Shown: positions 19,960 to 30,546, numbered from the stretch's first letter. The stretch: 45,979 nucleotides of DNA from Candidatus Latescibacterota bacterium (GCA_038279365.1 JAYODI010000043.1:1-45979), one strand, 5' to 3'. The notes: generated by a model not told the origin, from the sequence alone. A program made the numbers and translations.

Positions 19960-20188
19960 AAAAAACTCCCATTGTTGTCTATTGGAATAAGTGATCGATC
20001 TGGTTTTGTTGTTTTGTGATGCAGAAATTGATGATCGAAGATAGGGTGAGGCCATACAAGACGCAACACAAATTCATACACGCAAAGAGAATGGCAACCC
20101 ATCGTAAATGTGTTTTGCTTTTATTTTTTTCGTGTTATCATTTCTTTTCAAATACGTCAATGTGGTCATTCTTTATGGAGAAAAAGAA

Positions 20189-21355
20189 ATGGGTACTTCT
20201 ACATCTTATCGCGCACCCGCGTTTGCCGATTTTAATCCCGAGCATTCGGCACCTGGGGCCACGCCTGAGCGTTTGGCACATTTGGAAGAACAAGGTTTTG
20301 TGATCATTAATGATTTTGTGGATAGCGATTGGATTCCCATTTTGCGAGAGGCGGGTCGGCGCGTGACTGAGGCGTGCGCACCTGAACACGGATATAGCAA
20401 GCTCGATTTGTCAAAGGGATATATTCACCGTGCCAAAGCCGATGAGCCATGGGCGATTCGCGGTTTGATCCACCCAGCGTTTAAAGAGCCGAGTTTTGCC
20501 GAGTTTCACGGTTCTACAGAAATGTTAGACTTTGTGGCTTCTTGGTGTCATGGTTTACAACCCGAAGATTTGGTGATGAGTGGCATGCTTTTGTGGTGTA
20601 ACCCGCGCAAGAATGAGCACAGCCTCAGTTGGCACCGAGATGTGACGTGGTGGGGCACAGGAAAACCGTATTTGTCGCAAAAGGAAGTGCGAGGCGATGG
20701 GCCTGAGGCATATACGGAGGAACTTGAAAAGATTCGTTGGAAAGAGATTCAGGAAAAGAATGAAAAGTCTGTGCGTGAACGCAATGGGGTCAGTATGTTT
20801 TTGGCTTTGGTAGATGATGAGTGTCATGAATTGATTCCTACGAGCCACAACCGATGGCGCACACCCTATGAGCACGATGTATTGCTTCCCAAGAAGATGA
20901 AAGAGCAAGGGGTGCCTCATACACCCAGTTGGAATGGCACAGATCCTTTGCCCAACCAAGTGGCGGTTCGCCTTCGGGCCGGCGAAGCATTGATCCGTTT
21001 GGGTTCTAATATTCATACTGGGCACACCGTACCTGAACGAGAACGCAACACACTGTCTATTGGTTGGTCTAAGTGGTCGGGGCCCCCTACGGAAGAAATT
21101 GAAGTGACGGATGCTCGAAGTGCGTGGCAACTCGATCCCGCTGTGCGAGATGCACTGCCACATGAGTGGATGAAAGTGGCTTGGGATCGGTGGGCAGAAA
21201 CTCAAAAGTTAGGAGATACCCTCGAAGATCGGTATGCACCGTTTGATATCAAGCGTATTAAAGCGGGAGAAGTATTGGGGTGGCGTACTGAGTTGGAGCG
21301 CCAAGCCGCCGCTGCGGGTGAAGCGTGGCAACCTTTTCAAAAGGTAGAACAGTGA
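20189..21355 (+). CDS. Phytanoyl-CoA dioxygenase-like Fe(II)/2OG oxygenase
   Basis: EQGFVII, WHRD (HxD), IPTSH, LRAGEALI, IHTG and R-x-T-L motifs; GGAG RBS before 20189. Confidence 0.7.
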   Translation: MGTSTSYRAPAFADFNPEHSAPGATPERLAHLEEQGFVIINDFVDSDWIPILREAGRRVTEACAPEHGYSKLDLSKGYIHRAKADEPWAIRGLIHPAFKEPSFAEFHGSTEMLDFVASWCHGLQPEDLVMSGMLLWCNPRKNEHSLSWHRDVTWWGTGKPYLSQKEVRGDGPEAYTEELEKIRWKEIQEKNEKSVRERNGVSMFLALVDDECHELIPTSHNRWRTPYEHDVLLPKKMKEQGVPHTPSWNGTDPLPNQVAVRLRAGEALIRLGSNIHTGHTVPERERNTLSIGWSKWSGPPTEEIEVTDARSAWQLDPAVRDALPHEWMKVAWDRWAETQKLGDTLEDRYAPFDIKRIKAGEVLGWRTELERQAAAAGEAWQPFQKVEQ

Positions 21356-21499: not shown

Positions 21500-23434
21500 C
21501 TATATGATGTCACGTTCTTTGAGCAGTTTGACGATTTTGTCAACACACTCAGAGACTCCAATTTCGTGCGTGGGCAAGACCAAGTCGGCATGCTCTGGCA
21601 CATCGTAAGGCGCAGAAACACCGGGGAAGTTGAGCATTTCACCCGTGTCGGCTTTGGCGTAGTGACCGCGGGTATCTCGCTCTCGACAGACCTCCACGGG
21701 GGCCGCTGCGTGTACGACGACAAAGCGGTCGCGCCCGATGACCTCGGCCGCTTTTTGGCGCACCTCTTCATTGGGGGCAACAAAGGCGGCTATGCATATG
21801 AGCCCGGCGTCGTTGAACAGTTTTGCAACTTCGGCACTGCGCCGCAGGTTTTCGGAACGCTCATTGGCACCAAAGCCAAGATCTCGACTGATCCCCAATC
21901 GCATATTTTGTCCATCGAGTACCATACAGGCGCGACCTTGCTCAAAGAGGCGTCTCTCTAAGGCGTAAGCGATGCTCGTTTTTCCCGAACCCGTCAAACC
22001 TGTCAGGAGAATCGTTGCTGGTTTTTGCCCAAATCGAGCCAGACGTTCTTCCTCGGTTACATGACTGATTTCACCGTGTAGTGTTTTGCTTTGTGGTTCC
22101 GAATCCCAATGATCGGTGCGACCATTGCCACCGCTTCCGGTTTGGATCATGCCAGCGGCGACCGTGACATTTGTTAGGCGGTCAATGATGATGAACGCAC
22201 CCGTTGCTCTGTTGTTGCGATAATCGTCGAAACTGATCGGCTGGCTCAGGTTCAATGTGCAGCGACCAATCTCATTGAGACTGAGGGTTGGGGCATCTTT
22301 GCGGTGTAGTGTGTTCACATCGACCTGGTAGCGCAAGGTGTTGACCGTGCCTGTGACCATGCTGGTGCCTTGCTTGATCCAATAGGTCTTTCCCGGAACC
22401 ATCGGGTCTTCCGACATCCACACGATCATGGCTTCGATCTGGTCGGCAACGCGGGGCAAGTTTCCCGGTCTTACGATCATGTCGCCTCGACTGATGTCTA
22501 TTTCGTCTTCCAGAGTGAGTGTAATCGCCTGCGGCACAAACGCTTCTTCTTGGTCTCCATCAAAGGTGACTATCGATTTGACGGTACTGGTTTTTCGCGA
22601 AGGCAGTACCATGATCTCTTCGCCTTGGCGGATGGTGCCAGAGGCGATGGTGCCGCAGAAACCACGAAAGTCGAGGTTGGGGCGGTTGACATACTGAACC
22701 GGCATGCGAAAGTCTTTCAAGTTTCTGTCGGATCCGATGTAGACGTCTTCTAAGAATCCCATCAGTGTCGGACCGTCGTACCAAGGCATGTTTGCGCTGC
22801 GGTCAACCACATTGTCCCCCAGGAGGGCTGAGATTGGGATAAAATGCATGTCGCCTATATCGAGACGTGTGGAGAAGTCTTTGTAGTCGGATTTGATTTG
22901 TTCAAAGACCTCCTCGCTGAAATCTTTCAAGTCCATCTTGTTGACTGCAACCAGTATATGCTTGATACCCAGCAGCGACGTGATGAAACTGTGCCGTTTG
23001 GTCTGTGTGAGTACGCCATGGCGGGCATCAATTAAGATGATTGCCAAGTCTGCGGTCGAAGCGCCAGTTGCCATGTTTCGCGTGTACTGTTCGTGACCGG
23101 GGGTGTCGGCGATAATGAATTTGCGTTTGGCTGTGGAAAAGTATCGGTAGGCCACATCGATTGTGATGCCCTGCTCTCTTTCGGCGCGCAATCCGTCTGT
23201 CAATAAAGCCGGATCAAAACTGCCCCCCGTTGTGCCATGCGTTTGCGATTCCACTTCGAGTTTTTTGAGTTGATCCTCGTAGATCATCTTGGAGTCGTAA
23301 AGCAAGCGTCCGATGAGTGTGCTCTTGCCATCGTCAACGCTGCCACACGTGATGAATCGCATGAGCTCTTTGTGCTCGTGCTGAGTCAGATAGGCGTTGA
23401 TATCTTTGGCAATGAGATCTGATTGGTGTGACAT
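21500..23434 (-). CDS. cysNC: Bifunctional sulfate adenylyltransferase subunit 1 / APS kinase (CysN-CysC fusion)
   Basis: [26 protein letters not shown]-terminal [14 protein letters not shown] and GVSAPYDVP kinase domain. Confidence 0.96.
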
Positions 23435-23484
23435 AATGAGCTCGTTTTTTTTAAAAGTTTGCGTACCAATTTGTTGTTGAACGA

Positions 23485-24396
23485 TTAGAAGTAGCCGCGT
23501 TGTTTCTTGGCTTCCATTCCTGCGCCACCTTCGTCTTGGTCGATTACGCGGCCTTGTCGTTCAGATGTTTTTGTTAATAGCATTTCTTGAATGATGTCTG
23601 GCAGTGTGGTTGCTTCCGATTCAACCGCTCCGGTTAAGGGATAACAACCGAGTGTTCGGAAGCGGACCATTTTCATCTGTGGTTCTTCGCCGGGTTCCAA
23701 TTCCAAACGCTCATCGTCAACCATGATGAGTACGCCGTTGCGATTTACGACTGGGCGTTTTGCGGAGAAATACAATGGAACGATGGGAATTTGTTCTAAG
23801 TGAATGTATTGCCACACGTCTAATTCCGTCCAATTCGAGAGCGGAAAGACCCGAATGCTCTCTCCTTTGTTCACTTTGGCATTGTAAAGGTTCCACAACT
23901 CAGGGCGTTGGTTCTTGGGGTCCCAGCGATGATTTTTATCACGAAACGAGTAGACGCGTTCTTTTGCACGGGATTTTTCTTCATCTCGCCGCGCGCCACC
24001 AAAGGCGGCATCGAACTTGTATTTATCCAGTGCTTGTTTCAGCGCATCGGTTTTCATGATCTCCGTATGCTTTTCACTGTCTTCCCAAGGTTTGATTCCC
24101 AGCTTACTGCCTTCTTCGTTGGTGTAGGTGATCACTTCCAAGCCGAGTTCTTTCTTGGCATAATTTTCTCGGAATTCAATCATTTCCCGAAACTTCCAGG
24201 TTGTATCCACATGCATGAGTGGAAACGGGGGCTTGGCCGGATAAAAAGCCTTTAGCGCAAGTTGAACCATGACTGAGGAATCCTTGCCAATCGAATAAAG
24301 CATGACCGGATTGTGAAACTCGGCGGCCACTTCTCGAATGATATGAATGCTCTCTGCTTCAAGCTGTTTCAGATGGGTAAGGTTGTAGGTGGACAT
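23485..24396 (-). CDS. cysD: Sulfate adenylyltransferase subunit 2
   Basis: [46 protein letters not shown]. Confidence 0.97.
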
Positions 24397-24805
24397 CGAC
24401 CTGCCTATGTGTGGTTAAGGTTCTTGTATGGCGAAAGAAAGGCAAAGAGGATAAATATAATTAATTAATCCTATCCAGCCAGCGTTTTTATGTGATTGAA
24501 GGCCTTGCTTGCGGGGAAAGTGGCTAATTGTTGCGGTATGAGTTGGTATGAGACACAATCGGGAGAGTGGCAGGGAGGCACCATTCAGTTTTTTATTCAG
24601 CCTCAAAAATCTATACGCCCAAATTTTTTTATGACCAGCCTTTTTCAATGTTATACTGCTCTGCACACCATTGCCTGAGATTAAAGTAACTTGATGTAGG
24701 GATTATCGTCAAGTGGCAGCTTGAGATAAAATATCATTTCGGAAGAAGTTCCTTTTGCTTGTGTACACAGTTTTTAGAGGTAGGGTTTGTTTTCGCGCTG
24801 CTTGC

Positions 24806-24947
24806 CGATAACATCTGTCATGGCAGAGAGTGGTCGCACTTCAAAAAAGAGATCAAGATGTTATCCGTCAGCCAATGATTGGGTTGCGGCCATTTGGGTT
24901 GGGTGGTTGTGGGGAGGGGAGGTGTCAAGACGGCCGGCATGGCATTC
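24806..24947 (-). repeat. Degenerate attC-like site 4
   Basis: Core GTTATCG (24812-24806) preceded by CTGCCAT-7 nt. Inner IR tggtcgca/tgcggcca. Shares gcgctgcttgccgataac with the 28140-28157 copy. The inverse core has decayed (ggcattc at 24941-24947 where gttattc is expected). Confidence 0.5.
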
Positions 24948-25138
24948 TGTGTGTTCCAATCGATACACTTGTTGGAAAAATTCACTATAAATTCGTGGTG
25001 GGATGTATTCGAAATATCTTTTGGAAGCAGTCGTTAACCAGCATTGTGTTTTGCTATGGGCAAGTGGCATATCGTTTGCACGGGTCCCACAGAAATGGAG
25101 ATCGTTATGACGACAGAAAACGGAAAATGAGGTCTACT

Positions 25139-25555
25139 ATGGCATCTGTATTCAATATGTTGTTCATCGTCACTGGGGCATTTATACTCTTGGGGTGTGG
25201 TGAGATTCCAAATGATTCAGATGCCAAGCATATGGAAACTGACGAGGTGGTCTTTGCCGACATTCTAATCATCGGTCAAGATGAGAAAAGAGGAATGGTG
25301 TTTTGGGGAATGATGGTGAATACTGGTACACAATATGCCAGAGATGTCAGCTACGTTCTTGATTTTGAGATGACGGGTGGTCGTCTCTTCGAAGGCACAT
25401 GGAGTGATCCCATCCATGTGCCACCCTCTGTGCCCATCAGGATCGTCGGTAACGAGAGAATTGAGAGCGCATTTCTCGCTCGTATTGTATGGAAAACACG
25501 ATGGTATTCATTGGATGGAAAGTTTCATGAAGCCAGTGGGCAAATCACTTTTTGA
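25139..25555 (+). CDS. Hypothetical lipoprotein (cassette 4 cargo)
   Basis: MASVFNMLFIVTGAFILLG-C lipobox; GAGG 6 nt upstream of ATG 25139 (alternative start 25127). Confidence 0.6.
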   Translation: MASVFNMLFIVTGAFILLGCGEIPNDSDAKHMETDEVVFADILIIGQDEKRGMVFWGMMVNTGTQYARDVSYVLDFEMTGGRLFEGTWSDPIHVPPSVPIRIVGNERIESAFLARIVWKTRWYSLDGKFHEASGQITF

Positions 25556-25598
25556 CCGAATGTCCTGAGATATTATAGAGTTGATATTCCGAAAGCGA

Positions 25599-26054
25599 TC
25601 ACACCTGCTCTACAAGTTCTATATCTCGCTTAGAAACATATTCTTTGAATTTTGTTGTAAGTTCCTGGTTGATAGAAATTGTTCTAAAAAGTATTTTGAT
25701 CGGATCAACATTTTGGGATTTAAGAATTATTTCTACCGCGCTTGATGTAAGGCGAATACATGCAATATCTTGCCATGAAATGTTCTGTGCCAACTGAGAT
25801 CTCTTTGTTTTATATTCCAAACCGTTCTCAGAGAAAACTACTCTAAGTCTTCCATGGTTTTTAATATATAAAATTTCATAAATGGCTTTTATGGATACAA
25901 GGATACAGATTGGTATGGTTACCTCAAGAAACCAAGGCACCTTAGCTAAGTCGTAGTGTAAAATACCCAAGGCAACATTAAACAGAACCATAAATGGAAA
26001 ACCCACTCTGGACAAAATTGTATCATTGCCCAGATGTATAACGTCAGTATTCAA
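25599..26054 (-). CDS. Hypothetical membrane protein, two TM helices plus PH-like soluble domain (cassette 4 cargo)
   Basis: AT-rich 151-aa ORF with two hydrophobic segments; FSENGLEY...ISWQDIACI pattern. Confidence 0.6.
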   Translation of the reverse strand: MNTDVIHLGNDTILSRVGFPFMVLFNVALGILHYDLAKVPWFLEVTIPICILVSIKAIYEILYIKNHGRLRVVFSENGLEYKTKRSQLAQNISWQDIACIRLTSSAVEIILKSQNVDPIKILFRTISINQELTTKFKEYVSKRDIELVEQV

Positions 26055-26154
26055 TGATTGGTCATCCTTTTTTATCAGATTTCTCTGATTTGGGGTTGTG
26101 ATTTTTTGCTCGAATTTCAGGTGTTGGGTTGTTGGACATTTCTTATCTATTTTT

Positions 26155-26289
26155 GAATAACGTCTATTTTTGCAGACGGGTTGTGGTTCAGAAAAGTGAT
26201 AATGGTGTTTCTACAATCAGCTAAAGAATAAACTCACAACCTGTGGGATGTTGGGGTGTTGGGTGTGGCACTGCCATTGCTTGTTAGCC
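26155..26289 (-). repeat. attC-like site 3
   Basis: Minus strand GGCTAAC-aagca-ATGGCAG ... CTGCAAA-aatagac-GTTATTC; inner IR gggttgtg/cacaacct. Confidence 0.7.
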
Positions 26290-26453
26290 GAAGGCGCTTC
26301 GGGGTGGTTTGCCTCCATCAGTTTACATTCAGGGAGAAAATACAGCACACGCCATCTATATCTGTTTTTCTTTTGATTATTATCCTCTTGATCATATACC
26401 CCGAAATAGGTTATATTTCTCATATTGTTTGAGACCTCTAAAAAGGAAAATGT

Positions 26454-26687
26454 ATGGCTACTCTTCATATTGACCTAACAGATCAAGAAAATGATTCTCT
26501 TTTAACCATTGCACGTCATAAAGGCAAGAGCCAAGATGAATTGTTACATGATGCAATTCAAGACTTGATTTCTCAGTTTCAACAAGAAGATCGACAAGCT
26601 CTTCTTCAGAGTGCGCGTGGTATATGGAAGAATAGAACAGACTTACCTTCACCAGAAGAACTTCGGCGCGAATGGGACAGACTGTAA
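26454..26687 (+). CDS. CopG/RHH-type antitoxin (VapB-like)
   Basis: LHIDLTDQE...GKSQDELLHDAI RHH pattern; C-terminal ARGIWKNR...LRREW; 3 nt upstream of the PIN toxin. Confidence 0.8.
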   Translation: MATLHIDLTDQENDSLLTIARHKGKSQDELLHDAIQDLISQFQQEDRQALLQSARGIWKNRTDLPSPEELRREWDRL

Positions 26688-26690
26688 AAT

Positions 26691-27077
26691 ATGGCTATTC
26701 GACTGCTTTTTGATACAGATGTCATCATTGATTATTTGCGCGATCAAGCCGATGCAGTGCAATATCTTGAAAATCGACCAGAGACATTATTGATTTCTTC
26801 GATTGTCGTTGCTGAGCTTTATTCTGGTCTGCGTGATGAATCAGAGCGTGAAGCTTTAGAAACGTTTTTAAAGGCCTTCGAAATAGTGCCAGTTAATGAG
26901 GCAATCGCCATTAAGGGTGGCACTTATCGTCGAGATTATTACAAAAGTCATGGCACGGGTTTAGCAGATGCTTTGATTGCCGCGACGGCTGATATACGCC
27001 AAGCGAAATTGGTCACACTAAACAATAAACATTTTCCAATGTTGAAGGACATCATTACGCCTTATCAAAAGACGTAA
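26691..27077 (+). CDS. vapC: PIN-domain toxin (VapC family)
   Basis: LFDTDVIIDYLR, VVAELYSG, LADALIAATA, LVTLNNKHF. Confidence 0.92.
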   Translation: MAIRLLFDTDVIIDYLRDQADAVQYLENRPETLLISSIVVAELYSGLRDESEREALETFLKAFEIVPVNEAIAIKGGTYRRDYYKSHGTGLADALIAATADIRQAKLVTLNNKHFPMLKDIITPYQKT

Positions 27078-27106
27078 ACGATCACAAAGCACAAGTAAAG
27101 ATCCTC

Positions 27107-27138
27107 AACCCGCAATTGTTATTGAATTGCGGGTTTTT
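27107..27138 (+). terminator. Intrinsic terminator after vapC
   Basis: AACCCGCAATT...AATTGCGGGTT followed by a T-run. Confidence 0.8.
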
Positions 27139-27183
27139 GTTTTGTGTGCCGTGAGTTTTTCTGGGTGGTGTTGGGGCGCTTTT

Positions 27184-27320
27184 GGCTAACGGTTGCGGTG
27201 GCAGACGGGCTGTTGTTGCGAGAAAATGATAAACCGCTTTTTGATAATAAGCAAAGCATTTAGTCAACAGCCTGTATGTGGTTGGGCGTTGTGGTGTGGC
27301 ACTGCCAACGCGTGTTATCG
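27184..27320 (-). repeat. attC-like site 2
   Basis: Minus strand CGATAAC-acgcg-TTGGCAG ... CTGCCAC-cgcaacc-GTTAGCC; inner IR gggctgttg/caacagcct. Confidence 0.8.
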
Positions 27321-27411
27321 GTCTGGCAGCGCGCCCCAATAAGGCGAAGCTATAAAGGGGCACATCTATAGCGCACACCATCAACAATATTTTTTGTTAG
27401 TAGGTTAATTC

Positions 27412-27684
27412 TTAAACGGCGTCCAATACTGCTTGTGGATTTTTTGATACAACCATCAAAAGCGTTCTTGCCGCACCAGATGGGCTTCGACGACCCTGCT
27501 CCCAATCTTGTAGTGTCCGTACTGATACGCCTAAAAGTTCGGCAAATTGCATTTGAGAAAGACCCGCTTTTGCCCGAATTTGCGACACGTCGGGTACATT
27601 GATGATTCGTCCTTGTTCACCACGCTTGATTTCTTGTAACCCTTCAAGGATTTCTTGGCCAATATTTCTGTTTGTCTCATTCAT
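27412..27684 (-). CDS. higA: XRE-HTH antitoxin (HigA-type)
   Basis: IRAKAGLSQMQFAELLGVSVRTLQDWEQGRRSPSGAA; overlaps the toxin stop codon. Confidence 0.85.
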   Translation of the reverse strand: MNETNRNIGQEILEGLQEIKRGEQGRIINVPDVSQIRAKAGLSQMQFAELLGVSVRTLQDWEQGRRSPSGAARTLLMVVSKNPQAVLDAV

Positions 27685-27991
27685 TTTCTACCTCATTTCG
27701 GATTTGTCGCAGGATTTGGGGCGATATGTTTTCTGTCACGTTTTTAGGATACATTGTCAACATCCAAAACGTATACGAAGTAGCCTTCACAAAATAAATG
27801 ACACGATAGCCCCCGCGTTTCCCACGTCCTTTTGCTCGCCATCGAAGTTTACGAACGCCACCTGAACCTGGAATGACACTGCCAGATTCGGGGTTCTTCA
27901 AGAGAGCCTTTTGCAGTTCAGCATATTCCTGATCTGACAAGTATTCTTGTACAAGGCGAGTAAAGAGATTTGTTTCAATGAAAGTATGCAT
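27677..27991 (-). CDS. higB: RelE/HigB-2-type toxin
   Basis: FIETNLF, IPGSGGVRKLRW, GKRGGYRVIY, MYPKN; toxin-first gene order; ATG 27991 preferred. Confidence 0.88.
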   Translation of the reverse strand: MHTFIETNLFTRLVQEYLSDQEYAELQKALLKNPESGSVIPGSGGVRKLRWRAKGRGKRGGYRVIYFVKATSYTFWMLTMYPKNVTENISPQILRQIRNEVENE

Positions 27992-27997
27992 GTAATA

Positions 27998-28025
27998 ATT
28001 ATACGGCATTGCCGTATAAAAACAA
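27998..28025 (-). promoter_or_regulatory. higBA promoter with palindromic operator
   Basis: Perfect IR TTATACGGCA-t-TGCCGTATAA (27999-28019) overlaps a minus-strand TATAAT (28003-27998), 6 nt before ATG 27991; TTGTTT lies 16 nt upstream of the -10. Confidence 0.75.
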
Positions 28026-28150
28026 TGGAAATATTGGTAGACATTTGAGAAAAGTCAGAGATAGGGTTGAGAACGCTTGTTTGGCGAGATGTTTTGGGTT
28101 TTTGTGCGCAAACTTTGGGGTAGGGTGGTTGGGTTCTCTGCGCTGCTTGC

Positions 28151-28286
28151 CGATAACGGCTGCGGTTGCAGAAGTAGCCGCTTGTCATAAAAGAGATTAG
28201 GGCATTTCACAACCAGCCCAATAAATCAATAGCGGCGATTTGGGTTGGGATGTGGTTGTGTGTGGAACTGCAACCGCATGTTATAC
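28151..28286 (-). repeat. attC-like site 1
   Basis: Minus strand GTATAAC-atgcg-GTTGCAG ... CTGCAAC-cgcagcc-GTTATCG; perfect 11-bp stem TGCGGTTGCAG/CTGCAACCGCA; inner IR gccgct/agcggc. Confidence 0.8.
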
Positions 28287-28370
28287 GCCGGCAGACCCCT
28301 CGCGGCGAAGCCCTTAAAGGGAAATCCATAAAACGCGCGCCATCGTCTCCTGTTTTGATTCTATATTCTG

Positions 28371-29471
28371 TCAACACAGATCAGAGATAGGAAAATCGAT
28401 AATCGCTTTACTAACTCTTTCTAAGCCAGTGGCAAATAGCGTACGTGACCGTTTGCTGGGGAATTTCATTCTTCCACCTGCAGTCACAAGCCGAAACATA
28501 ATGGTGTCATATAAGGTTACTCGATAGCTGTGGTAACACTGTTCCAAGCTGTAGTTTTGCACACCTAACTTTTGTAATTCATCGCAATATCTCAGTAGCA
28601 GATCGGATTCTACTGCTCTGCGGTGTTCTGCGGTCAAGTTACCAATCATGAAGTAAGACAAATCATGGGGGCCTTGAACTTGGATGAGGTCTTGCCAATC
28701 AAAAACCACGAGTTGGTGATCATCTTCAGGATTGCCAAAGAAAAGATTATCTAAGCGGAAATCCCCATGACATAGAGTCAATGGTGAAATGAGTGCTTGT
28801 TTGCGGATTTGATCTCCATATTCGACGAATATCGGCCAAGTTTCTTCTATCGGCTTTGGTATTTGGCCTTCAAATTTCTCTGCAAAACGTTCCCAAGTTT
28901 TGTTCTGCTTACGCTGCCATTTTTCTTTGGCTTTGATATTGTCCAAAGGAGATAGGGTACGAACCCAATCCATTGATTCAATTTTCGGCTTGTCCCACCA
29001 GGTTGCGTGAAGTGATGCAAGGTAATCTGCTATATTTTCTAATTCTTGATTTGATGAGCATCCTGCAATACTATTCCCAATACGTCCTTTCTTGAGATCT
29101 TCAAGTAGGATTACACTATCTCCGTTTGTTTCGTCAAAGGCAGCATAATAACACTGTGGAATACGTATATTCGTTTTGTTGGCAATTTTGTTGTAAAAAT
29201 TGACCTCAGTTCTGTATAAATCAATAAGAATTTCGCGTTGGTTTTGTGGTAGAGATATCTTGGCAATAATAGATTTTGGTGCCTTTTCTCTATACGTTTG
29301 ATAGGTGAGTTCAAAACGAAAAACCTGTCCGACAAATCCTTGTCCGTCACCTATCCTTTCACCTTCAATAGCTGTAACGGAGGTGTTCTCAATAGTGCCA
29401 GACGTTCCTAGAACCTGAGTGAACCACTCGGGTGTAAAGTTTTCCAGATTTGTTGGGACGTGCACAGTCAT
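28371..29471 (-). CDS. APH/choline/ecdysteroid-kinase-like phosphotransferase (cassette 1 cargo)
   Basis: IGDGQGF, IIAK, EVNFY, LLEDL, LCHGDFRLDN, FDWQ, DLSYF. Confidence 0.88.
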   Translation of the reverse strand: MTVHVPTNLENFTPEWFTQVLGTSGTIENTSVTAIEGERIGDGQGFVGQVFRFELTYQTYREKAPKSIIAKISLPQNQREILIDLYRTEVNFYNKIANKTNIRIPQCYYAAFDETNGDSVILLEDLKKGRIGNSIAGCSSNQELENIADYLASLHATWWDKPKIESMDWVRTLSPLDNIKAKEKWQRKQNKTWERFAEKFEGQIPKPIEETWPIFVEYGDQIRKQALISPLTLCHGDFRLDNLFFGNPEDDHQLVVFDWQDLIQVQGPHDLSYFMIGNLTAEHRRAVESDLLLRYCDELQKLGVQNYSLEQCYHSYRVTLYDTIMFRLVTAGGRMKFPSKRSRTLFATGLERVSKAIIDFPISDLC

Positions 29472-29560
29472 GCTTACACCTTATATAATGTCACTTTTAA
29501 AGGTTGTTGGATGCTGATTTTGATTTTTCGCGCGTGATTAGTTTTTTTGATTTTGCTGCT

Positions 29561-29605
29561 GGCGTATAACTTCCCGATGTCCGAACCAAAGGTTCGGACA
29601 TCGGG
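29561..29605 (-). other. Putative attI-like array start: lone core site next to a perfect 15-bp inverted repeat
   Basis: Minus-strand G|TTATACGCC at 29570; IR CCCGATGTCCGAACC-aaa-GGTTCGGACATCGGG (29573-29605); no attC-type arm. Confidence 0.55.
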
Positions 29606-29709
29606 TGTATTTCTTTAGACTACGAACCTTTTCGATAACTTTGGTAAAATAAGGAAAAGAATTGGATTTGTCATGGGTAATTATTGTATAAGTGAATATC
29701 TTACTACAT

Positions 29710-30546
29710 TTAAGTTTTTGGTACGTTGTGTGTATCTGGGGCATATTGTTTTAAAAAGGCTTGGATAACGGCGGGGTTTCTTTTGGTGTCCCAACCACGC
29801 AAATAGGTGTGTGGTTGGGGTTCGATGTCTGCGATGAGCAACTCTTCAACAAGGGGTTTTGATGAAGCAATGACGTTGCCATCGGCATCAATGATATTGG
29901 TGCAGCCATAGGAGGTGTAATTGCCACTGTGACCGGCCACATCGGCACTGATAACGGATATGCCATTTTCTACGGCTCTTGCAATGTGTTTGTTTCTGGC
30001 CAGGTTTTTGGACATTGCATTTATGCGGTGGGGAAGCAAGGCATTGTTGGTTGGAATGAACAGGGCGGCAGCGCCTTGGGCGGCTATGATACGGGCGGGT
30101 TCCAGATAATTTGTATCGTTGCAAATGATGATGCCAAACGTGAGGTCACCAATGACAAAGGTGGGCAATTGGTCACCCGGTGCATAAACCGACTTGTTTA
30201 TGGCTGGATATACTTTGCGATAAACGCCTATCACTTTGCCTTTATGAAACACTGCGGCGGCATTATACAAAGTTCCTGATGGGGTCGATTCGGTAAACCC
30301 AATAATGAGACTCACTGTGTCACTTTTTAGGGGTGACAAAAAGGTTTCTAATTGGCCGTTGTTAACTTGCAGTGCGATATCCAATGGTTGATCTATATCG
30401 TCTGCAAGGCCACCCAAAACGGCTTCTGGGCAACATAATATTTCAACGTTATTTTTTTCACAAATGGAGATCTGGCGTTTGACGTGTTCCAAGGCATCCA
30501 TGGAACCGTGTTTTAGGAGGGGGGCTTGGTAGGCGGCAATTTTCAT
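29710..30546 (-). CDS. Carbon-nitrogen hydrolase (nitrilase superfamily)
   Basis: MKIAAYQ; Glu-Lys-Cys triad in CCPEA, YRK and IICND; ARAVEN. Confidence 0.9.
   Translation of the reverse strand: MKIAAYQAPLLKHGSMDALEHVKRQISICEKNNVEILCCPEAVLGGLADDIDQPLDIALQVNNGQLETFLSPLKSDTVSLIIGFTESTPSGTLYNAAAVFHKGKVIGVYRKVYPAINKSVYAPGDQLPTFVIGDLTFGIIICNDTNYLEPARIIAAQGAAALFIPTNNALLPHRINAMSKNLARNKHIARAVENGISVISADVAGHSGNYTSYGCTNIIDADGNVIASSKPLVEELLIADIEPQPHTYLRGWDTKRNPAVIQAFLKQYAPDTHNVPKT

Follow-up and report, generated by a model that had tools for sequence, protein, structure and literature searches.

The window analyzed here, a contig of 45,979 nucleotides from a Candidatus Latescibacterota bacterium (GCA_038279365.1, JAYODI010000043.1:1-45979; contig C3 of genome bin G000), carries at positions 24806 to 29605, read on the minus strand, a gene-cassette array that very likely is an integron-type array of a system whose tyrosine recombinase lacks I2, the extra domain held to distinguish integron integrases (PMC9024848; papers are cited by identifier). 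The stretch is probably a satellite platform of this integron variant, and we lean toward the view that satellite attI sites of this kind are still served in trans after the recombinase open reading frame (ORF) has been lost. The original prediction had described an integron-type cassette array with crossover at G|TT, toxin-antitoxin cassettes and no adjacent integrase gene, and in all of this it was right. The five minus-strand cores that it placed at 29570 (GTTATAC), 28157 (GTTATCG), 27190 (GTTAGCC), 26161 (GTTATTC) and 24812 (GTTATCG) are present, and the lengths of the first three units were reproduced by computation and that of the fourth by subtraction (Table 1). However, the core at 29570 belongs to an attI-like site and not to an attC, which leaves one attI and four attC-type sites. 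The label of integrase-less cluster of attC sites (CALIN), defined by at least two attC with no integrase nearby (PMC9024848), holds insofar as there are four attC-type sites and no recombinase gene on C3, but the array has kept its attI-like site along with what is probably a leftover of the sequence preceding an integrase gene, so that we are dealing with a deleted platform rather than a bare attC cluster.

The attI-like site ties the array to an enzyme. Copies of the site were located by BLAST at C128:54-1, C198:46871-46804 and C173:22662-22594, and it was also aligned with copies from the genomes G001 and G002 and from metagenomes. On C128 the site starts no more than about 50 bases past the stop codon of a 359-aa tyrosine recombinase, P0001, whose gene points towards it. 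Immediately behind P0001, the only intact recombinase of this kind in the genome, and in the same orientation as its gene, thus stands the attI that also heads the window array. Contig C128 ends inside the attI-like site, overlapping the start of C198, which holds two cassettes, and the two contigs likely join here. An attI with GTT next to the integrase at the array head was found at C128/C198, in the window, on C173 and in relatives, and position and sequence are what mark these sites as putative attI. At 29570 there is no attC body; instead, a 15-bp hairpin stands immediately before G|TT (hairpin z about -6).

P0001 is the best integron-integrase match of the genome, yet it scores under the cut-off (223 bits against TIGR02249, cut-off 265). 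Its catalytic residues R210, K235, H300, R303, H326 and Y335 are conserved in 117 relatives. The closest solved relative, and the best match by sequence and by Foldseek, is VchIntIA, which aligns in two pieces separated by 23 residues in P0001 versus 65 in VchIntIA, indicating that the I2 insertion is absent. In a joint alignment this segment is 39 aa long in each of the 19 I2-less rows and 79-80 aa long in each of the 16 true IntI rows, and a 100/100 branch parts the two sets in a tree that is unrooted, leaves the sister group unsettled and contains one wrongly picked neighbour among the IntI rows (L105) and one Xer row out of frame. A search for intI with the I2 insertion, as the original prediction proposed, gave no canonical IntI above cut-off in G000 (a 98.5% complete bin) or in the same-genus genomes G001 and G002; the recombinase that shares the attI is one without I2. 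The accompanying suggestion that the integrase was lost or acts in trans may hold as far as action in trans is concerned, but the linked enzyme is not an IntI with I2. Two more full-length recombinases are encoded in the genome, on C114 and C41, and they would be XerC/XerD. Relatives of P0001 were found, patchily, in 14 of 60 related genomes. Some of these relatives, for instance the multicopy ones of G042, belong to a sister group and are probably associated with transposons. Two places in G052 (L124:17589-19713 and L125:16616-18398) have a 314-aa I2-less recombinase immediately behind a canonical IntI. A GAAC-N5-GTTC-type inverted repeat lies upstream of the P0001 gene (L011, G000:C128:1280-1264) and could be a repressor box; we presume a likeness to a LexA box.

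How the window came to have an attI without a recombinase gene is suggested by the 75 bases between the nitrilase stop codon and the attI, which align with 136 bases before the C128 recombinase start. The score of this alignment was matched by none of 1000 random and none of 1000 GC-matched genome pieces; when the same bases were aligned with the whole 1335-base gene locus, the score was reached by 5 of 500 shuffles and 2 of 500 random pieces. Apparently the recombinase ORF has been deleted from the window platform, with its upstream region and the attI staying behind. A recombinase coding remnant before the C173 attI was not accepted, given that 25 of 500 shuffles were equally good, and the pattern of the attI upstream box was uninformative (4 of 31 genomes, with as many matches in controls). 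For a Pc promoter we found one 9-of-12 site at 29674-29646, and neither the promoter count (15 versus 15.7) nor the terminator count differed from that of shuffles.

Each of cassettes 1 to 3 is consistent with itself. As predicted, the inverse cores GTATAAC, CGATAAC and GGCTAAC match the starts of their own cassettes (1 to 3), and the match extends to 15-18 bases, beyond the 7 originally noted. On the bottom strand, the ends of cassettes 1 and 3 form duplexes of -17.7 and -15.6 kcal/mol with their own starts, compared to -8.4 and -2.6 kcal/mol with the next start (cassette 2 in Table 1). We extended the comparison to 27 cassettes in nine arrays of four genomes (G000-G003), with sites placed by structure scan and seven of them by hand, leaving out units that were decayed or ambiguous (window unit 4, the later C173 units, C43, C53, L010 and L061). 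The cassette's own start outpaired the next start in 25 of the 26 testable cassettes, with one tie; the observed mean was reached by 0 of 20000 permutations, and the bottom strand paired better than the top strand in 25 of 27. The 50-60 bases before each inverse core are alike between unrelated cassettes (28300-28360, 27330-27385 and 26300-26370 in the window), as are the first 40-60 bases of many unrelated cassettes, which points to a common way of cassette making.

The sites themselves combine integron features with a distinct anatomy. An AAC inverse core, a GTT core and a bottom-strand hairpin are present in window sites 1-3. Classical attC have a 5-6-base unpaired spacer and extrahelical bases at the L box (PMC5027507); in the intact sites here a continuous 9-11-bp stem follows an uneven loop, and both the L-box extrahelical base and the spacer are absent. 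In 18 long sites, folding of the bottom strand places AAC/GTT, with an adjacent G·T, before the uneven loop; next come a 9-bp stem, a bulge of roughly 25 bases rich in G and T, and a second stem that contains another G·T. In this alignment 94.3% of cells are paired versus 74.8% when shuffled (0 of 500 shuffles reach it), a comparison favoured by the fact that the consensus structure was derived from the same 18 sites; 12 of 21 pairs vary on both sides, and the two G·T pairs are invariant in 18/18. A second outer block (at least 5 of 6 pairs) occurs in 23 of the 27 cassettes, compared to 2 of 24 canonical cassettes; that control consists of 17 Gemmatirosa plasmid cassettes and 7 from three phylum loci, most canonical loci having given no array in a canonical-site scan with relaxed criteria. 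The A·C that corresponds to a bottom-strand G·T stands 8 bases past GTT in 21 of 27 cassettes. In G000 the GC skew is strong (median 0.20), and the folding bottom strand is the G-rich one in 6 of 7 contigs (C3, C128, C198, C173, C16, C53 and C43), with agreement at 5 of the 7 loci taken from G001, G002 and a metagenome contig; the G-rich folding strand may be the lagging-strand template, which would favour hairpin formation.

We considered whether the recombination could be double-stranded and Xer-like, or whether the sites are inverted-repeat elements of the repetitive extragenic palindrome or miniature inverted-repeat transposable element (REP/MITE) type, the hairpins then being incidental. 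P0001 nearly scores as XerA-type (218.8 bits against NF040815, 'site-specific tyrosine recombinase/integron integrase', cut-off 220), its Z score with the archaeal Xer 4a8e is 21.7, it shares with XerA-type and Xer recombinases the same catalytic fold without I2, and the cassette ends are indeed inverted repeats. However, the long-site model gave only 13 matches in G000, on 6 of 199 contigs and nearly all in arrays (150 of 3653 candidates scored), and an exhaustive nhmmer scan gave 12 strong matches on 5 contigs, which does not fit the genome-wide solitary repeats that the original prediction had named as refuting it. Moreover, the stems covary instead of keeping their sequence, the fixed mismatches pair on the bottom strand only, and beyond GTT there is no common sequence long enough for a double-stranded core. 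P0001 also differs from Xer recombinases in its patchy distribution among relatives and in its association with cassette arrays instead of dif. We therefore hold this explanation to be very unlikely.

Alternatively, the array could be a plain CALIN derived from a classical integron, with an IntI that has disappeared or is unassembled and with the C128 recombinase as a bystander. This would equally account for the G|TT cores, the inverse cores and the toxin-antitoxin cargo, which resemble those of classical arrays. Canonical IntI does occur above cut-off in 17 of 168 genomes of the phylum, and G005 (82% complete) has a canonical IntI fragment together with such sites on other contigs and no I2-less enzyme that we could find. 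On the other hand, the nearly complete G000 bin has no IntI above cut-off, in G000, G001 and G002 the attI directly adjoins the I2-less gene or what remains of it, and the sites lack the L-box extrahelical base and have an outer stem. The site model, furthermore, matched 5 of the 13 I2-less loci outside its training set and none of the 16 canonical IntI loci. This makes the bystander scenario highly improbable, and an I2-less system the preferred reading of the array.

Within that reading, the relatives supply a series of platforms in different states. In G000, one intact enzyme of this kind faces arrays on C3, C198, C173, C16, C53 and C92. Decayed recombinase 3' ends precede the same attI at G002 C251 and L010 (74-79% identity to P0001) and, as read by eye, at G001 C259; these internally deleted copies with the same attI represent intermediate stages in sister genomes. 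G002 also has an intact, more distant I2-less enzyme (39%) with four cassettes, and a decayed duplicate of that enzyme's platform with the same first cassette. On metagenome contigs, the same remnants are followed by first cassettes unlike those of their counterparts (L078 compared with L061, and L079 and L076 compared with G002 L010), and these differences on the same decayed platform are the main evidence suggesting activity in trans. The vapBC cassette of the window shares a 905-bp body with G002:C51 at 92% identity, with the same ends and other neighbours; there it is the fourth cassette of an array behind the intact I2-less recombinase. Likewise, an 802-bp PIN cassette is common to G000, G001 and G002 with different neighbours, and from these sequence comparisons cassettes appear to move as units with G|TT boundaries. 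On C37 of G000, one contig end continues into two different cassettes directly after G|TT. Swapping between attC and cassette body is not claimed, because the vapBC case (body 92% versus site 68%) is a single one with doubtful letters in site 3; the PIN cassette gave 84-96% versus 81-89%. The G002:C102 array was rejected as the same locus, as it lies beside a paralogue (70%) and not the orthologue (85%) of the gene at 20108-21355, and in a metagenome pattern scan 5 of 8 loci were unrelated.

The platform could instead be a frozen relic, copied together with its cassettes and only decaying since, with no insertion in trans. Folding declines from site 1 to site 4 (Table 1), and G002 C34 and C51 share attI and first cassette, indicating that a platform can be duplicated with its cargo. 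The window attI lacks the hairpin-closing AAC seen in C128 and G001 and, given this loss, may no longer be functional. Additionally, the complete single-contig genomes G015, G026 and G030 keep such sites with neither enzyme found intact, which speaks against a strict link between enzyme and site. Against a relic stand the different first cassettes on the same pseudogene platform between strains, the switch falling exactly at the crossover, and the intact state of cassettes 1 and 2 next to a barely recognisable ORF remnant. We regard a relic as unlikely, though clearly more plausible than either of the explanations above.

The missing AAC, the three complete genomes and the G005 result also weigh against our reading of the stretch as a satellite platform served by an I2-less enzyme, as do the following points. 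As some of the 27 cassettes are shared, they are not fully independent; seven sites were placed by hand, and the set contains no decayed units. Deletion without any enzyme could also give different first cassettes, the crossover of L078 is ATT, and the L010 attI is partly lost. No circle and no joint at G|TT was found in the contigs of four runs, contigs being data that drop rare forms. No empty site was found, and the array flanks are rearranged in relatives: cysD was not found at E up to 1e-50 in G001, G002, G003 and G008 (G061 duplicates G002), and the neighbours differ at both flanks in G002 and at the helicase flank also in G001. Runs X5 and X6 have contigs for the nitrilase flank, for cysD and for units 3-4, but 27544-29531 is uncovered and nothing bridges it, which is no more than a coverage hint that cassettes 1 and 2 may be missing from those strains. 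The C128-C198 join consists of 43 shared bases that are also present in C173, and the G000 bin is 7.4% contaminated. Of the 8 platforms tested, only 2 showed the remnant of the upstream region and one more was borderline, and 8 of the 13 untrained I2-less loci had no match to the long-site model. Lastly, the N-terminal 70 residues of P0001, a small alpha/beta domain, may be HARP-like on weak evidence: with an E-value limit of 0.05, HARP (PF07443) was matched by 55 of 117 relatives, the best of them at 5e-4, and not by P0001 itself, the fold resembles the N-terminus of T4 UvsW (Z 7.1, rmsd 2.6, 60 aligned residues), a weak link to HARP, and atlas matches were below 0.9 and unnamed.

We propose that the unit of recombinase and attI would be copied to new chromosomal places, where the ORF is then lost. 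In a cassette circle, the bottom strand would form a long hairpin in which the two ends of the same cassette supply the outer 15-18 bp, and the fixed G·T wobbles and the uneven loop would take over from extrahelical bases in marking the strand. Expressed from another locus, the C128 enzyme would cut the folded bottom strand at AA|C and join the circle to the attI, newest cassette first, by one strand exchange resolved by replication as in integrons. Once the cassette is inserted, the outer stem would be split and the site would pair about half as well, so that keeping cassettes may be favoured over excision; because the outer stem would exist only in the circle, insertion would be the favoured direction. 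A possible role of the HARP-like domain is to bind the fork where the hairpin begins, and the attI hairpin may itself be a folded substrate. Taken further, and tentatively, this could be a second kind of integron in which attI and attC both take part as folded single strands, the roles of I2 and the extrahelical bases fall to G·T wobbles and a HARP-like domain that binds forks, the outer stem favours insertion over excision, and a self-copying platform with one recombinase builds a network of landing sites.

Table 1. Features of the cassette platform and its flanks (window coordinates)
Feature	Position	Strand	Evidence or remarks
Nitrilase-family gene (flank, outside array)	29710..30546	-	PF00795
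Probable remnant of region upstream of recombinase gene, fused to attI after ORF loss	29635..29709	-	alignment to C128
attI-like site	29568..29634	-	conserved upstream box; 15-bp hairpin 29573-29605; crossover G|TT at 29570
Cassette 1, 1413 bp	28158..29570	-	own start and own end pair over 15 bp, one bottom-strand G·T
Ecdysteroid-kinase-like/APH-family kinase, 366 aa	28371..29471	-	PF02958 E 1e-17; PF01636 E 1e-9
attC-type site 1, 128 bp, intact	28155..28282	-	106.8 bits (training-set member); bottom-strand fold z -4.1
Cassette 2, 967 bp	27191..28157	-	own-end duplex -19.6 vs -9.8 kcal/mol with next start
RelE/HigB-type toxin (cassette 2)	27677-28009	-	PF06296 E 4e-8
Helix-turn-helix antitoxin (cassette 2)	27412-27684	-	PF01381 E 4e-10
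attC-type site 2, 129 bp	27188..27316	-	96.3 bits (training-set member); bottom-strand z -1.5
Cassette 3, 1029 bp, vapBC reversed	26162..27190	-	own-end duplex -15.6 vs -2.6 kcal/mol with next start
PIN toxin (vapBC)	26691-27077	+	PF01850 E 2e-17
77-aa partner of PIN toxin (vapBC)	26454-26687	+	
attC-type site 3, 127 bp	26159..26285	-	87.7 bits (training-set member); z -0.4; doubtful letters in right arm and next core
Unit 4, 1349 bp, decayed	24813..26161	-	two convergent ORFs
Membrane protein, 151 aa (unit 4)	25599-26054	-	no Pfam/NCBIfam match; 31% paralogue on C43
Lipoprotein-like ORF, 137 aa (unit 4)	25142-25555	+	no Pfam/NCBIfam match; resembles unnamed clusters at 0.90-0.92
attC-type site 4, inverse core lost	24810..24934	-	50.2 bits, E 3e-11, model not trained on site 4; z 0.0, no stable fold
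Stub of a further cassette	24770..24812	-	first 18 bases identical to cassette 2 start
cysD and cysNC (flank)	21500..24396	-	NF009214 and NF004035 above cut-off

Unit 4 is where the original prediction failed in detail. The proposed pairing of GTTATTC with a decayed GAATGCC does not work, given that GAATGCC (24947-24941) is out of register with the expected inverse core. The covariance model places site 4 at 24809-24927, and the spacing of intact sites puts the inverse core at about 24940-24934, where nothing AAC-like is left. Judging by its two convergent ORFs, unit 4 is probably a fusion of at least two cassettes. In the decayed site, a new 9-bp inverted repeat at 24812-24870 joins the core to an internal GATAAC about 50 bases upstream in a short alternative hairpin, and the 13 bases at 24946-24934 are identical to a C53 cassette start, which suggests that site 4 became joined to the start of a cassette through a deletion. 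At 26110-26171, contigs of the runs X4, X5 and X6 (three studies) agree on other letters at 10 places, and a fourth run, X9, concurs at the 7 of those places that it covers. The run letters change the core at 26161 to GTTATGC, and the window mostly has T where the runs have G, at a hairpin; the deviating letters are probably consensus or assembly errors or private changes.

As to the cargo, a 22%-identical relative of the cassette 1 kinase is the first gene behind the I2-less recombinase of G029, and the 77-aa partner of the PIN toxin has no family match and would be the antitoxin. Elsewhere in this system, ORF-poor cassettes of 266 and 276 bp (L141, G000:C173:22599-22323, and L059:8211-8475), and longer ones on L152 (G000:C92) and at the G000:C37 end, sit first behind attI or at the array head and may be promoter or RNA cassettes. 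A cassette at L060:9306-10613 (G002:C102) encodes a 435-aa protein that, by eye, reads like a beta-lactamase-family serine hydrolase. Beyond the stub at 24770, the covariance model found no more attC-type sites as far as cysDN, and two Rfam matches under the gathering score were taken as chance. The lack of a cysD match in the four related genomes leaves room for cysDN being a recent acquisition adjoining the array end. At the contig end (42000-45979), short minus-strand ORFs without Pfam matches stand in series, with no attC-type site.

Sedentary chromosomal integrons and CALINs, as exemplified by VchIntIA (PDB 2a3v), share with this system the G|TT crossover, the AAC inverse core, bottom-strand hairpin sites, head-to-tail cassettes with toxin-antitoxin pairs and arrays without an adjacent integrase. 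Unlike them, the system has no I2, an extra N-terminal domain, a recombinase pointing at the array, a hairpin within attI and several attI platforms per genome, and its attC stems have about 2 instead of 4 unpaired bases, no L-box extrahelical base and two fixed G·T. In inverted-integrase integrons of the Treponema denticola type, the integrase gene is co-oriented with the cassettes, as here, and the integrases are canonical IntI with I2. The pairing of cassette ends spans 15-18 bp here versus 9-11 in classical cassettes (PMC2727003). In Xanthomonas, integrase genes have decayed by stops and deletions and arrays persist, as here, and CALINs are said to be mobilisable in trans (10.1101/2025.06.18.660453). 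In contrast, the Xanthomonas intI is canonical and sits at one conserved locus (ilvD), whereas the I2-less platform is found at several unrelated loci. Integron integrases are held to have gained single-strand recombination through I2 (PMC7790495; PMC4792948). The insertion is described as not fully conserved in an integron-like subgroup (PMC8138268). We found no description of I2-less cassette arrays in the literature searched, which did not extend to subscription journals and supplements.

In summary, the system would function as an integron does, yet two of the features that define the classical family are missing from it. What this locus contributes is a hairpin attI copied to several places, together with a series that runs from an intact gene to a bare landing site; the locus thereby adds a route to integrase-less arrays, in which a platform is duplicated and its ORF is lost, the landing site being left. 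With one enzyme, one attI and three intact cassettes, it also represents a compact test set. If our reading is true, surveys based on IntI overlook one class of platforms for gene capture and may label some complete platforms as CALINs, and a cassette system working without I2 makes the origin of integrons directly testable. Should the system prove to be a second kind of integron, it would represent living cassette capture without I2 that either preceded I2 or evolved in parallel.

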